The notes beneath the pieces are model-generated. The model did no database searches. It was not told the DNA's origin and worked only from the letters and a program-made list of their open reading frames with translations. The translations under genes and the position numbers were made by a program. From the NCBI GenBank assembly GCA_963754655.1, contig CAVWGN010000001.1:2912001-2976000 (forward strand): a DNA stretch of 64,000 bases, in the 5' to 3' direction. Source of the DNA: an uncultured Chlamydiae bacterium (GTDB taxonomy: Bacteria; Chlamydiota; Chlamydiia; Chlamydiales; Parachlamydiaceae). Positions 6,698-44,546 of the stretch are shown here, piece by piece (position 1 is the stretch's first letter; every line of letters begins with the position of its first letter).

Positions 6698-6781
6698 TGC
6701 GAAAGAGGGGACTTGAACCCCTACGAGGAAACCCTCACTACCACCTCAAAGTAGCGCGTATACCAATTCCGCCACTTTCGC
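6698..6781 (-). tRNA. tRNA-Leu(GAG)
   Basis: Reverse complement GCGAAAGTGGCGGAATTGGTATACGCGCTACTTTGAGGTGGTAG...GGTTCAAGTCCCCTCTTTCGCA; long variable arm; CCA not encoded. Confidence 0.95.
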
Positions 6782-9043: not shown

Positions 9044-9442
9044 CTAGGGTGTTCATTTTGTGCAAAAAATGAGCTTTATTTTTCACAATAATTGGCATAG
9101 TTAAATTGAAGGTCGCATGTTTATGCCGTCCTTTCAGGACTCGATGTCTTTTTGATAGAACCCAGGCCTCCGCTTCGCTGCGACCTGGGCTGTAACATGA
9201 CAGCCCTTCAGGCCTTAACAAAAAGATGATTTAGGGACTATAGAAGAGGGACTTAAACATCTCTTGTTAAGGCCTGAAGGGCCGTCATGTTACAGCCCAG
9301 GTCGCAGCGAAGCGGAGGCCTGGGTTCTATCAAAAAGACATCGAGTCCTGAAAGGACGGCATAAACATGCGACCTTCAATTCAACTATGCCAATTATAGT
9401 GAAAAATAAAGCTCATTTTTTTGCACAAAATGAACACCCTAG
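9044..9442. mobile_element. Palindromic MITE/REP-doublet family A, copy 1 (399 bp, intact)
   Basis: CTAGGGTGTTCATTTTGTGC...GCACAAAATGAACACCCTAG; ~185-bp inverted arms around a ~30-bp core; copies at 16531 and 42961. Confidence 0.92.
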
Positions 9443-9684: not shown

Positions 9685-9757
9685 GCACCGATAGCTCAAT
9701 GGATAGAGTACCCGGCTTCGAACCGGGTGGTTAGAGGTTCGAGCCCTCTTCGGTGCA
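9685..9757 (+). tRNA. tRNA-Arg(TCG)
   Basis: GCACCGATAGCTCAATGGATAGAGTACCCGGCTTCGAACCGGG...GGTTCGAGCCCTCTTCGGTGCA. Confidence 0.95.
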
Positions 9758-16272: not shown

Positions 16273-16377
16273 TCACCTTATGCAAGTGAGGTCAAAGAAT
16301 CAGTGATACCCCTTAAATAACCCAATAGCTTGATTTGTTTAATCGCCTGAAAGGCTTTAAATAAAATAGCCCAGGGA

Positions 16378-16523
16378 CGGGACTTAACAAAGAACTGTTT
16401 TGGGCTTGATGTTTTTCGCGTCATTTTCGAGAAATATGCCTCTAAAGCCTTTTACAGGCGTGGTGCTGTTAAATTGACGCGATGAATATCAAGCCCAAAA
16501 AACAGTTCTTTGTTAAGTCCCGG
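16378..16523. mobile_element. MITE family C (~146 bp)
   Basis: ~33-bp inverted ends (C)CGGGACTTAACAAAGAACTGTTTTGGGCTTGAT; CCCAGGG on both sides; four more copies within 60049-61692. Confidence 0.9.
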
Positions 16524-16622
16524 CCCAGGGATAGGGTGTTCATTTTGTGCAAAAATGAGCTTTATTTTTCACAATAATTGGCATAGTTGAATTGAAGGTC
16601 GCATGTTTATGCCGTCCTTTCA

Positions 16623-18084
16623 GGGACAATTGCAGAATAAACAATAAATTATTTTAATTTACCACTTTCAAAAAAAGGCTCCTTAATATAGTCTAGATGT
16701 AGAAAAACCGTCTTAAACTATACAAGGAACCGAAAAATGTTCAGAGAAAAATTATCGCAAATGTGGAATAACGTACAGTCTACTCTTTTTCCTGATTTAA
16801 TCAAACGAACTCATGAACTCTGCCCTGAGTATAAAAAATTAGTATCAATTCTGGAACTTGTTCGTATTGAAAGTCATATTCCGCGATCCTTCAAATTAGG
16901 AAGGCCACCAAAAGATCGCATCGCAATGGCTAGAAGTTTTATCGCAAAAGTAGTCCTAAAACAACCTTACACTAAACAAATTATTCGCCTGCTAAACCAG
17001 GATGAACAATTGAGGATTATTTGTGGTTGGGAGGCAAATCATAAAATTCCTTCTGAATCTAAATTTTCTAGAGCTTTCAAAGAATTTAGCCAAATAACCC
17101 TTCCGGATAGGGTTCACCAAGCATTGGTTAAAGAATTTTACAAGGGAGAGATCATAGGACATGTGATAACAGATTCTACACCCTTAGAAGCACGTGAAAA
17201 ATCATTAAAAAAACCATGTGCAAAAACACGTCGAAAAGAAAAAGACAAAGAAAGAAGAAGAATGAAAAGTGCTGGAGAACCAAATCTACGTCAACAGCAG
17301 TTGAATGAACCAGATCTTCGAAAAATGGTAGAACATCTTCCTATAGCATGTGACAAAGGCATGAAAAGAAATCCTCAGGGATTTCACATTTTTTGGAAAG
17401 GCTATAAGTTGCATACTAATGTTGATGATAATGGAGTCCCTTTGGCTGCAATTGTCACATCTGCATCGTGTAATGACTGTGAAGTTGCAATTCCTTTATC
17501 TCTAAAAACAAGCAAGGTAGTAACTAATTTGTACGATTTAATGGATGCAGCTTACGATTATCCAGAAATCAAGGAATTTAGCCGATCCCTTAATCATATA
17601 CCAATTATCGATCAGTGTTCGCGAAGTGCAGCTCAAAAAAAGGCAAAAATGGAAGAGAAAAAAAGAAAAACTCTTTTAAATTTTAAAACAGCTGAAGAAA
17701 AGAGGTACGCAGAGCGATTTCCCAAAGAATCCTTTAATGCATTCTTTAAGGACTATTGTGGAGGACATAGGATATATTACAGAGGATATCAGAAAGTCTC
17801 TTGCCATGCATTATTTGGAGTATTAACAGCGGCCGCTATGATGTTATTGAAATTCACTTCCTAAAGATCGATTAAATTTCAAAGATTGACAGTATCTTCT
17901 TACGTTACCCCCTGCCAAAATTAGATCAATTTTTAAAAAAATTCAAAAAATTCGAATGTTTTGCATAAAAGTGTTTTTTTTTCATTAAAACTTAGTCGTC
18001 TAGAATCGATTCTTTTCGATCTCAGGTACAATTGACAGAAAAAAAATCGCAGTATAACACGCTAAATAATTCTGCAATTGTCCC
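16623..18084 (+). mobile_element. Insertion sequence, 1462 bp, copy 1
   Basis: 16-bp TIRs GGGACAATTGCAGAAT; duplicated TTTCA (readable as 5, 7 or 9 bp); second copy at 43054-44515. Confidence 0.95.
16737..17864 (+). CDS. DDE transposase (IS4/IS5/IS1182-like)
   Basis: PSESKFSR, DST, GYKLH, MDAAYD, YxxRxxxE motifs; exact IS family not assigned. Confidence 0.92.
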   Translation: MFREKLSQMWNNVQSTLFPDLIKRTHELCPEYKKLVSILELVRIESHIPRSFKLGRPPKDRIAMARSFIAKVVLKQPYTKQIIRLLNQDEQLRIICGWEANHKIPSESKFSRAFKEFSQITLPDRVHQALVKEFYKGEIIGHVITDSTPLEAREKSLKKPCAKTRRKEKDKERRRMKSAGEPNLRQQQLNEPDLRKMVEHLPIACDKGMKRNPQGFHIFWKGYKLHTNVDDNGVPLAAIVTSASCNDCEVAIPLSLKTSKVVTNLYDLMDAAYDYPEIKEFSRSLNHIPIIDQCSRSAAQKKAKMEEKKRKTLLNFKTAEEKRYAERFPKESFNAFFKDYCGGHRIYYRGYQKVSCHALFGVLTAAAMMLLKFTS

Positions 18085-18154
18085 TTTCAGGACTCGATGT
18101 CTTTTTGATAGAACCCAGGCCTCCGCTTCGCTGCGACCTGGGCTGTAACATGAC

Positions 18155-18482
18155 GGCCCTTCAGGCCTTAACAAAAAGATGATTTAGGGACTATAGAAGA
18201 GGGACTTAAACATCTCTTGTTAAGGCCTGAAGGGCGGGCCCTTTAAGCCTTAACAAAAGGACTATTTATGGACTATAGAAGAGGGACTTAAATCTCTCTT
18301 GTTAAGGCCTGAAGGGCCGGCCCTTTAAGCCTTAACAAAAGGACTATTTATGGACTATAGAAGAGGGACTTAAATCTCTCTTGTTAAGGCCTGAAGGGCC
18401 GGCCCTTTAAGCCTTAACAAAAGGACTATTTATGGACTATAGAAGAGGGACTTAAATCTCTCTTGTTAAGGCCTGAAGGGCC
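18155..18482 (+). repeat. Four tandem 82-bp units (core of element A)
   Basis: Units start at 18155, 18237, 18319, 18401; the last three share variant bases. Confidence 0.93.
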
Positions 18483-18686
18483 GTCATGTTACAGCCCAGG
18501 TCGCAGCGAAGCGGAGGCCTGGGTTCTATCAAAAAGACATCGAGTCCTGAAAGGACGGCATAAACATGCGACCTTCAATTCAACTATGCCAATTATTGTG
18601 AAAAATAAAGCTCATTTTTGCACAAAATGAACACCCTAGTCCAGGGATCATTGCTATCCCTTAAATAACCAAATAGCTGGATTTGT

Positions 18687-38009: not shown

Positions 38010-38082
38010 GCGGGTGTAGCTCAGTTGGTAGAGCGTCACCTTCCCAAGGTGAATGTCGTGAGTTCGAGCCTCATCACCCGCT
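38010..38082 (+). tRNA. tRNA-Gly(CCC)
   Basis: GCGGGTGTAGCTCAG...TCACCTTCCCAAGGTGA...TCACCCGCT. Confidence 0.95.
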
Positions 38083-38102
38083 CAAGAGATATCTAGTTTA
38101 TT

Positions 38103-38174
38103 GCGGGCGTAGCTCAGTGGTAGAGCATCACGTTGCCAACGTGAGGGTCGTGAGTTCAAGCCTCATCGCCCGCT
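38103..38174 (+). tRNA. tRNA-Gly(GCC)
   Basis: Anticodon arm TCACG-TTGCCAA-CGTGA. Confidence 0.95.
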
Positions 38175-38191
38175 ATTATCTTCAATCTCAT

Positions 38192-38263
38192 GCGGGTGTA
38201 GCTCAGTGGTAGAGCATCACGTTGCCAACGTGAGGGTCGTGAGTTCAAGCCTCATCACCCGCT
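38192..38263 (+). tRNA. tRNA-Gly(GCC), second copy
   Basis: As the previous tRNA except one acceptor-stem pair. Confidence 0.95.
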
Positions 38264-42819: not shown

Positions 42820-43053
42820 TCTTTGCAAATGGAAGGATGTCCTCCTTTGGGGAACAATCAATATTTTCATGAGATCCCACAAGCTGCGCTGCGCTTGGGC
42901 TGTGGGCTAAAAATAGAATGACGCAAGCGCCTAAGTTAGCATTTATCTTACACACCAAGGCTAGGGTGTTAATTTTGTGCAAAAAATGAGCTTTATTTTT
43001 CACAATAATTGGCATAGTTGAATTGAAGGTCGCATGTTTATGCCGTCCTTTCA

Positions 43054-44515
43054 GGGACAATTGCAGAATTATTTAGCGTGTTATACTGCGATTTTTTTTC
43101 TGTCAATTGTACCTGAGATCGAAAAGAATCGATTCTAGACGACTAAGTTTTAATGAAAAAAAAACACTTTTATGCAAAACATTCGAATTTTTTGAATTTT
43201 TTTAAAAATTGATCTAATTTTGGCAGGGGGTAACGTAAGAAGATACTGTCAATCTTTGAAATTTAATCGATCTTTAGGAAGTGAATTTCAATAACATCAT
43301 AGCGGCCGCTGTTAATACTCCAAATAATGCATGGCAAGAGACTTTCTGATATCCTCTGTAATATATCCTATGTCCTCCACAATAGTCCTTAAAGAATGCA
43401 TTAAAGGATTCTTTGGGAAATCGCTCTGCGTACCTCTTTTCTTCAGCTGTTTTAAAATTTAAAAGAGTTTTTCTTTTTTTCTCTTCCATTTTTGCCTTTT
43501 TTTGAGCTGCACTTCGCGAACACTGATCGATAATTGGTATATGATTAAGGGATCGGCTAAATTCCTTGATTTCTGGATAATCGTAAGCTGCATCCATTAA
43601 ATCGTACAAATTAGTTACTACCTTGCTTGTTTTTAGAGATAAAGGAATTGCAACTTCACAGTCATTACACGATGCAGATGTGACAATTGCAGCCAAAGGG
43701 ACTCCATTATCATCAACATTAGTATGCAACTTATAGCCTTTCCAAAAAATGTGAAATCCCTGAGGATTTCTTTTCATGCCTTTGTCACATGCTATAGGAA
43801 GATGTTCTACCATTTTTCGAAGATCTGGTTCATTCAACTGCTGTTGACGTAGATTTGGTTCTCCAGCACTTTTCATTCTTCTTCTTTCTTTGTCTTTTTC
43901 TTTTCGACGTGTTTTTGCACATGGTTTTTTTAATGATTTTTCACGTGCTTCTAAGGGTGTAGAATCTGTTATCACATGTCCTATGATCTCTCCCTTGTAA
44001 AATTCTTTAACCAATGCTTGGTGAACCCTATCCGGAAGGGTTATTTGGCTAAATTCTTTGAAAGCTCTAGAAAATTTAGATTCAGAAGGAATTTTATGAT
44101 TTGCCTCCCAACCACAAATAATCCTCAATTGTTCATCCTGGTTTAGCAGGCGAATAATTTGTTTAGTGTAAGGTTGTTTTAGGACTACTTTTGCGATAAA
44201 ACTTCTAGCCATTGCGATGCGATCTTTTGGTGGCCTTCCTAATTTGAAGGATCGCGGAATATGACTTTCAATACGAACAAGTTCCAGAATTGATACTAAT
44301 TTTTTATACTCAGGGCAGAGTTCATGAGTTCGTTTGATTAAATCAGGAAAAAGAGTAGACTGTACGTTATTCCACATTTGCGATAATTTTTCTCTGAACA
44401 TTTTTCGGTTCCTTGTATAGTTTAAGACGGTTTTTCTACATCTAGACTATATTAAGGAGCCTTTTTTTGAAAGTGGTAAATTAAAATAATTTATTGTTTA
44501 TTCTGCAATTGTCCC
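43054..44515 (-). mobile_element. Insertion sequence, 1462 bp, copy 2
   Basis: Same TIRs, length and TTTCA duplication as copy 1, opposite orientation. Confidence 0.95.
43274..44401 (-). CDS. DDE transposase, same protein as 16737-17864
   Basis: Identical 375-aa translation in the ORF track. Confidence 0.92.
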   Translation of the reverse strand: MFREKLSQMWNNVQSTLFPDLIKRTHELCPEYKKLVSILELVRIESHIPRSFKLGRPPKDRIAMARSFIAKVVLKQPYTKQIIRLLNQDEQLRIICGWEANHKIPSESKFSRAFKEFSQITLPDRVHQALVKEFYKGEIIGHVITDSTPLEAREKSLKKPCAKTRRKEKDKERRRMKSAGEPNLRQQQLNEPDLRKMVEHLPIACDKGMKRNPQGFHIFWKGYKLHTNVDDNGVPLAAIVTSASCNDCEVAIPLSLKTSKVVTNLYDLMDAAYDYPEIKEFSRSLNHIPIIDQCSRSAAQKKAKMEEKKRKTLLNFKTAEEKRYAERFPKESFNAFFKDYCGGHRIYYRGYQKVSCHALFGVLTAAAMMLLKFTS

Positions 44516-44546
44516 TTTCAGGACTCGATGTCTTTTTGATAGAACC

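Follow-up and report, generated by a model that had tools for sequence, protein, structure and literature searches.

Here, we analyse an insertion sequence (IS) that is present twice in a 64,000-nt stretch of DNA, in the following called the window, from an uncultured Chlamydiae bacterium of the Parachlamydiaceae (GenBank assembly GCA_963754655.1, contig CAVWGN010000001.1, positions 2,912,001 to 2,976,000, forward strand). Every copy of the IS in this genome is joined to the same position of a short palindromic motif, GTCC-TTTCA-GGAC. The motif belongs to a non-coding palindromic repeat of ~300-410 bp (element A), most copies of which contain it twice. We consider it likely that the IS is an active member of the IS1182 family from a small chlamydial sub-clade specific for palindromic sites, and that its transposase reads the two half-sites of the motif as sequence.

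Genome-wide insertion sites

Searching the genome (3.12 Mb plus a second contig of 35 kb, 38.8% G+C) with blastn revealed ten full copies of the IS, nine with 100% and one with 99.86% identity, and two truncated copies. The latter are a 224-bp 5' fragment (C1:1378659-1378882), which is followed by unrelated DNA, and a partial copy with 99% identity (C2:34155-35310) that stops at IS position 1160, where the 35-kb contig ends; the left junction is canonical in both. All left (12/12) and right (10/10) IS junctions fall on one position of the motif GTCCTTTCAGGAC, and a direct 5-bp repeat is present in 10/10 full copies. Relative to the asymmetric centre TTTCA of the motif, both orientations are used, namely 5:5 among the full copies and 7:5 when the partial copies are included.

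The repeats around the insertions differ from each other (single-base variants, one 1-bp deletion, two outer-arm subfamilies), and the unique DNA beyond the repeat differs as well. Since the IS copies are nearly identical within such differing host repeat variants, the insertions are independent and recent, i.e., they are not copies of one composite. A first-pass annotation of the window, made from the letters alone, had proposed that a DDE-type IS uses the repeat as a safe-haven target. This is supported by the flanks of all genomic copies: 12/12 are located at the exact position, none lies in unrelated sequence, and both window copies are intergenic.

We also counted the sites that are not occupied. 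The genome holds 254 empty exact 13-mers GTCCTTTCAGGAC, compared to 0.05 expected from base composition, along with 10 further sites that are one base off; the occupied share is about 4.5% (12/266 sites). The same repeats also contain look-alike hairpins, namely GGCCCTTCAGGCC (n=339) and AGCCTTTCAGGCT (n=85, with the same central 9-mer). Genome-wide, 0/424 of these look-alikes are occupied, that is, they received 0/12 insertions. Given equal use of all 690 sites, hand arithmetic yields a probability of ~1e-5 for this outcome. That none of the 424 look-alikes is used argues for a recognition that reads sequence and not shape alone.

A miniature derivative flanked by the inverted repeats of the IS was not found in the genome when two mismatches were allowed, the only matches being the IS copies and one unrelated hit. 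Likewise, the IS was not found in the three genomes of the same genus that were searched.

IS copies within the window

Copy 1 covers positions 16623..18084 on the + strand and copy 2 positions 43054..44515 on the - strand, i.e., both are 1462 bp long and copy 2 is inverted with respect to copy 1. Their alignment is 100% identical from GGGAC to GTCCC and the similarity ends exactly there; the tips are placed according to the register of the family (see below). The ends form perfect 16-bp inverted repeats GGGACAATTGCAGAAT. In copy 1, the left repeat (16623..16638, +) aligns with the relatives' GAGCnnCTTGCAAAAT, and the right repeat (18069..18084, +) is its perfect reverse complement. Most of the IS length is taken up by one open reading frame of 375 aa, which encodes a DDE-type transposase according to its Pfam matches and invariant residues; it is located at 16737..17864 (+) in copy 1 and, again as an open reading frame, at 43274..44401 (-) in copy 2.

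On the + strand, the flanks of both copies read ...GCCGTCCTTTCA, IS, TTTCAGGACTCG... or, as a longer stretch, ...ATGCCGTCCTTTCA, IS, TTTCAGGACTCGATG... The left target half of copy 1 (16614..16622, +) comprises GTCC and the duplicated TTTCA (16618-16622), while its right target half (18085..18093, +) comprises the duplicated TTTCA (18085-18089) and GGAC. The respective halves of copy 2 are located at 43045..43053 (+; GTCC and duplicated TTTCA) and 44516..44524 (+; duplicated TTTCA and GGAC). Between the two sites, the IS changes its orientation but the flanks keep theirs, and a direct duplication borders each copy; hence, no exchange of the flanks has occurred. Reading and alignment thus agree with the first-pass annotation, which had described two 1462-bp copies in opposite orientations within the same loop of element A and had excluded recombination between them.

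Duplication length and hairpin geometry

Since the target's GGAC/GTCC extends into the tips GGGAC/GTCCC, the sequence alone allows a target duplication of 5, 7 or 9 bp. Contigs from metagenomes that carry the empty form of the site skip 1467 bp (=1462+5) with 9 ambiguous letters. Formally, a duplication of 4 bp would fit as well if one of the IS ends had an additional base. In the register of the relatives, the tips of the IS are GGGACAA-TTGCAGAAT, and the element therefore has 1462 bp. Given the same register, i.e., tips that start 7 nt before TTGCA as in more than 80 relatives, the duplication is best read as 5 bp, namely TTTCA.

With regard to the target hairpin, the stem has 5 bp (GTCCT/AGGAC) and the loop 3 nt (TTC), such that the 5-bp duplication corresponds to the TTC loop plus the closing T-A pair. 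The intact site folds with -3.0 kcal/mol as single-stranded DNA, and 16/200 shuffled sequences fold at least as well. At both IS junctions, the sequence folds into a weak approximation of this hairpin (-2.7 and -2.0 kcal/mol). Accordingly, two further statements of the first-pass annotation hold, namely the ambiguous length of the duplication and the near hairpin rebuilt at both junctions; its hairpin GTCC-TTTCA-GGAC is correct as a motif but not in its stem, which is one T-A pair longer than written there.

Metagenome data

In a soil metagenome, the IS is assembled as a single contig of 1464 bp with a depth of 10.3, while the flanking repeat reaches a depth of 200-480. This ratio is consistent with ~12 IS copies among ~266 sites. 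The same metagenome, which also holds the empty form of the site, is possibly the source sample of the genome and is therefore not counted as independent evidence.

Another sample from this study (run X3) contains a 151-bp contig (depth 2.4) with the IS tips around 86 unrelated letters at the same target site. Its IS parts are the 15 terminal nt of either end, and it matches the window at 16612-16637 and 18070-18095. This contig may represent a miniature non-autonomous derivative in a related population. Runs X2 and X4 yielded partial or diverged pieces only.

Transposase and relatives

The transposase matches the Pfam families DDE_Tnp_1 (PF01609; 52.8 bits, cutoff 23, 5.6e-14) and, in its N-terminal region, DUF772 (PF05598; 32.9 bits, cutoff 23.1, 6.6e-08). 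The residues Y324, R327, E331 and K338 do not vary among 28 homologues, and neither do the aspartates D146, D267 and D270. The former four are spaced as Y-(2)-R-(3)-E-(6)-K, which we take to be the YREK signature around the catalytic E of IS4/IS5-type DDE transposases. The invariant aspartates include the putative catalytic ones. An AlphaFold2 model based on 28 sequences has a mean pLDDT of 53 and a pTM of 0.37 with the catalytic region below 50, and a profile search of the PDB sequences with the transposase returned one chance-level match (E 0.039).

The best of five NCBIfam models is IS1182 (NF033551) with 73.8 bits compared to a cutoff of 270, while the IS5 models score 25-46 bits. Using tblastn, the closest annotated relatives were found on plasmids and are named 'IS1182-like element ISUnCu17 family transposase' (37.7% identity over 99% of the query); further plasmid relatives with 35.5-39% identity are annotated as 'IS1182 family transposase', all names being those of the annotators. 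ISUnCu17 has the tips GAGCCTCTTGCAAAA (GAGCCTCTTGCAAAAGG) and a 4-bp duplication, and its GAGCCTCTTGCAAAAGG shares both consensus and register with GGGACAATTGCAGAAT. Judged by these relatives and tips, the element is placed in the IS1182 family and, within it, on an ISUnCu17-like branch with a short transposase. As an aside, a class 1 integron on an Aeromonas plasmid (L183) carries ISUnCu17 between qacEdelta1 and aac(6')-Ib, the 4-bp duplication being ATGA.

Relatives with 40-46% identity form multi-copy families in long-read genomes and share nothing outside the element. Since these long-read copies have unrelated flanks, the ends of the relatives are fixed. Their tips GAGCnnCTTGCAAAAT begin 7 nt before a conserved TTGCA, and a duplication of 4 bp borders the elements. 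The inverted-repeat pair was found in 92 loci with the end 7 nt before TTGCA, a count that is partly built in, as the script required TTGC/GCAA at a fixed offset; the boundary itself is confirmed independently by the long-read copies with unrelated flanks.

Outside the clade of the IS (see below), 41/79 loci with both flanks readable show an exact 4-bp duplication, for which 34 different sequences were observed, and complementarity of the flanks in these 79 loci is not beyond chance. Another chlamydial branch (41-44% identity) likewise has 4-bp duplications in varied AT-rich DNA. Many proteins with 56-89% identity to the transposase exist, and a metagenome scan provided at least four clade members among the matches listed. 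Our literature searches found no description of this chlamydial IS.

Sister elements

Together with five relatives of 54-63% identity (L081, L001, L003, L083 and L082), the transposase forms a clade with 100/100 support and a long branch. We inspected the junctions of these sister elements, including further ones from a search of the L001/L002 genome. In 10/10 readable junctions from four sister IS types, we find four or more consecutive G, beginning 2-4 nt from the tip. For instance, L081 is inserted as ACCCCC-TGCC, IS, TGCC-GGGGGA, i.e., its 4-bp duplication is the spacer of a C5/G5 palindrome. This site is part of a long palindromic element whose other arm keeps an empty site. In genome G403, two sister-IS copies (L185 and L190) lie in the perfect palindrome GAACCCCTAGGGGTTC and are joined 2 nt apart. 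The available DNA of L082 (54% identity) contains no recognisable ends.

That is, palindrome targeting is a trait of the sub-clade and not of the whole group. Elsewhere in the phylum, only relatives with at most 56% identity were found, in 14/400 genomes including the window's own.

We also considered a guide-like complementarity between the IS interior and its target, which was rejected: the longest match has 9 bp and is reached by 202/500 shuffled targets. The 6-7 bp observed in L081 were rejected likewise.

Host repeat and neighbourhood

The genome contains 102 convergent pairs of target sites, 47 of which are spaced exactly 217 bp. The consensus of these 47 pairs is a near-perfect palindrome with an inner element of ~300 bp that is 90-99% conserved, and most copies also have an outer shell. 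Overall, more than 100 copies of the repeat are 98-100% alike, with the central segment found in both orientations. Among 21 relatives searched, the same form of the repeat was found only in the source genome.

In the window, the element A interrupted by copy 1 has the outer part of its left arm at 16524..16622, as delimited by the consensus of 47 intact copies, and the remainder of this repeat, i.e., inner arm, extra central modules of ~81 bp and second arm, covers 18085..18648; both boundaries are approximate. The second arm is intact and keeps an empty target site at 18544..18556 (-; C1:2930544). The repeat around copy 2 lacks a second arm. An intact, unoccupied copy of the repeat is located at 9093..9392 with empty sites at 9128-9140 (+) and 9345-9357 (-). 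The extra tandem modules of ~81 bp (GGCCTTAACAAAAGGACTATTTATGGACTATAGAAGAGGGACTTAAATCTCTCTTGTTAAGGCCTGAAGGGCC) fill the centre of the copy-1 repeat at 18160-18440. In other parts of the genome, there are site pairs with spacings of ~298 and ~380 bp, which is consistent with one or two additional modules of this kind. Just left of copy 1, at 16360-16530, we observe another palindromic element of ~170 bp that is bounded by CCCAGGGAC ... GGCCCAGGGA.

We compared the repeat with Rfam. At gathering thresholds, the whole window yields only five tRNAs. These genes are located at 38010-38263, 9685-9757 and 6698-6781, three of them tightly clustered and one ~300 bp from the intact repeat copy. Below the thresholds, the model RF01687 (Acido-Lenti-1), an entry in Table 1 of PMC2864571, matches inside the arms of the intact repeat with 36.4 and 25.5 bits. 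A further match of 20.6 bits places the target and its 5' flank (UUUAUGCCGUCCUUUCAGGAC) on model positions 25-45, which include the 3' hairpin. In favour of a relation, the target is aligned to that hairpin and the full-length matches lie in the same arm; in contrast, all three scores are below the gathering score of 37, and the flanks of the sister elements show no Acido-Lenti-1 match up to an E-value of 0.05 but only palindrome-driven matches to microRNA models. The resemblance of the target to the 3' hairpin of the Acido-Lenti-1 motif is thus suggestive only, all matches being sub-threshold. The idea, gained by eye, that the L081 target follows the same module plan is unsupported given the missing match in the sister flanks.

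Discussion

In the mechanism that we favour, a two-fold symmetric complex of transposase and IS ends would recognise both half-sites of the 13-bp GTCC-TTTCA-GGAC as sequence, probably within duplex DNA. The two strands would be cut with an offset of 5 bp, each at the inner border of a half-site, and the ends GGGAC...GTCCC would be joined such that a 5-bp duplication TTTCA arises in either orientation. Insertion in both orientations would follow directly from the two-fold symmetric recognition of half-sites. Insertions would be tolerated given that the motif is found once per arm of a non-coding repeat, which offers ~266 near-neutral landing sites, 12 of them occupied. The unused look-alikes together with the weak single-stranded fold favour such a reading of the half-sites as sequence.

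Several observations weigh against this picture. Duplications of 4 (with the extra base), 7 and 9 bp fit the junctions equally well, such that only the family register favours 5 bp, and the 92 loci counted for this register are partly a product of the search pattern. Furthermore, the putative 5-bp stagger departs from the 4 bp of all relatives. The flanks outside the 13-mer are conserved too, as they are part of the repeat, and recognition could therefore extend beyond the 13-mer or be displaced from it. Taken by themselves, the 85 AGCC-type sites provide a weak contrast (~0.04, hand arithmetic). No NCBIfam model reaches its cutoff, i.e., the family placement relates to annotated relatives and shared tips. 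For the sister element of G403, the cut position shifts by 1-2 nt between two copies within the same palindrome, and thus the cut rule is not rigid across the clade. Finally, the form of DNA recognised may be a duplex, a cruciform or a single-stranded hairpin.

In a rather unlikely alternative, the transposase would read shape, that is, a hairpin or cruciform that has been extruded or, at the replication fork, a hairpin in single-stranded DNA, as proposed for IS1272. The identical site sequences would then merely reflect that the sites belong to one repeat family, which we likewise regard as improbable. PMC4923244 and PMC5678879 describe that IS1272/TnSha1 of the same family enters hairpins without a primary sequence consensus. 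The sister targets are palindromes with varied loops (TGCC, ATCC, TTAG, GGAT), the duplication equals the spacer between the stems both here (5) and in L081 (4), and the target is part of a near-perfect palindrome of 300-410 bp that could extrude. However, the very similar small hairpins of the same repeats are all left unoccupied, and the stem of the target, with its 5 bp and -3.0 kcal/mol, is short. The sister stems are conserved C/G runs and are thus equally consistent with a reading of half-sites.

A quite unlikely variant relates the target to the IS ends. Here, the half-site GGAC would be bound by the same part of the transposase as the tips GGGAC, such that the site resembles two abutted IS ends, and the tips would have drifted from GAG to GGG to match the half-site, for which we see a similarly slim chance. 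The tip GGGAC indeed includes the half-site GGAC. Position 2 of the tip is a G at both ends in this IS alone, while nearly all listed relatives start with GAG (two start with TAG and two weak pairs differ). Of three abundant hairpin types, the one that is used has the stem that matches the tips, and a near hairpin is regenerated at either junction. On the other hand, four sister IS types with the tips GAGAC or GAGGT hit C/G-run palindromes to which their tips bear no resemblance. The match comprises 4 nt only, its GAC is ancestral to most of the clade, and no similarity is found further out. That is, the likeness between ends and target stem emphasised by the first-pass annotation is real for the 4 nt GGAC, but the sister elements speak against it as a cause.

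It is quite unlikely that the tips co-evolved with the landing site, i.e., that both ends changed from GAG to GGG with one DNA-reading surface for the ends and for a target that resembles two abutted ends with a 5-bp spacer. If true, such co-evolution would explain the strict sequence specificity, the duplication of 5 instead of 4 bp and the ignored commoner look-alikes, and it would provide a simple route to a new site specificity for a DDE transposase.

It is highly improbable that no targeting is involved, i.e., that a composite of repeat and IS was passively copied and then inverted or that random insertion was followed by loss of all harmful copies: the host repeat is abundant and mobile-looking and 9/10 IS copies are identical, but the orientations are 5:5, the host repeats carry different variants and two outer-arm subfamilies with different unique DNA beyond (the composite duplication considered by the first-pass annotation does not account for the pattern), selection cannot account for the same nucleotide position 12 times, and sister elements of other genomes show the same habit.

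We also related the preferred reading, i.e., half-sites recognised as sequence, to known systems. Insertion of IS1272/TnSha1 at inverted-repeat or hairpin sequences, in both orientations and with repeated independent insertions in the same hairpin, is described in PMC4923244 and PMC5678879. According to these papers, IS1272 has no primary sequence consensus and generates no target duplication, and part of the hairpin is deleted or replaced. Palindrome targeting by some IS1182 members is also mentioned in PMC4923244, which cites a review (Siguier 2015). The element studied here shares with IS1272/TnSha1 the transposase family (by annotation of its closest relatives), the choice of palindromes and the use of both orientations. 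It differs in that one 13-mer is hit 12/12 times, nothing is deleted and a clean 5-bp duplication is found. Furthermore, its insertions share one exact sequence, with 0/424 look-alike hairpins occupied, and its transposase is much shorter (375 aa compared to the 488 positions of the IS1182 model).

With ISUnCu17 and the unnamed relatives (36-46% identity), the element has in common the domain layout, a size of ~1.45-1.5 kb and the tip consensus G-A/G-G-n4-TTGCAnAAT, which starts 7 nt before TTGCA. In contrast, those relatives show 4-bp duplications in unrelated non-repeat targets.

IS1397 and ISKpn1 of the IS3 family are confined to the loops of enterobacterial palindromic repeats, known as repetitive extragenic palindromes (REP) or palindromic units (PU). 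They are functional analogues only, as the element studied here has DDE_Tnp_1 and DUF772 and not an IS3-type integrase core. The recombinase of the IS110 family is of the DEDD type. For its members IS621, ISPpu9 and ISPpu10, insertion into repetitive extragenic palindromes is reported in PMC12288879 and PMC11208160. Their recombinase is guided by a bridge RNA and is not of the DDE_Tnp_1 type, whereas here DDE_Tnp_1 is found and target complementarity does not exceed chance. IS1397 and IS621, to which the first-pass annotation had referred, are thus analogues from other families (IS3, IS110) and not the right comparison; the IS1182 family itself already has published palindrome targeting. Since targeting of hairpins or palindromes has been published for this family (IS1272), the element is not a new kind. 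What differs from the published cases is its strict sequence specificity along with the clean duplication.

Taken together, the family tree contains a natural experiment on target choice, i.e., non-specific members with 4-bp duplications, a clade that uses C/G-run palindromes and a single member with a 13-bp motif. With this gradient of specificity, and with 424 decoy hairpins that stay empty next to those in use, it can be tested directly whether sequence or DNA shape is read. For the bacterium, the finding means that an obligate intracellular organism can host an active IS with little burden, and that nested palindromic repeats can grow in this way.

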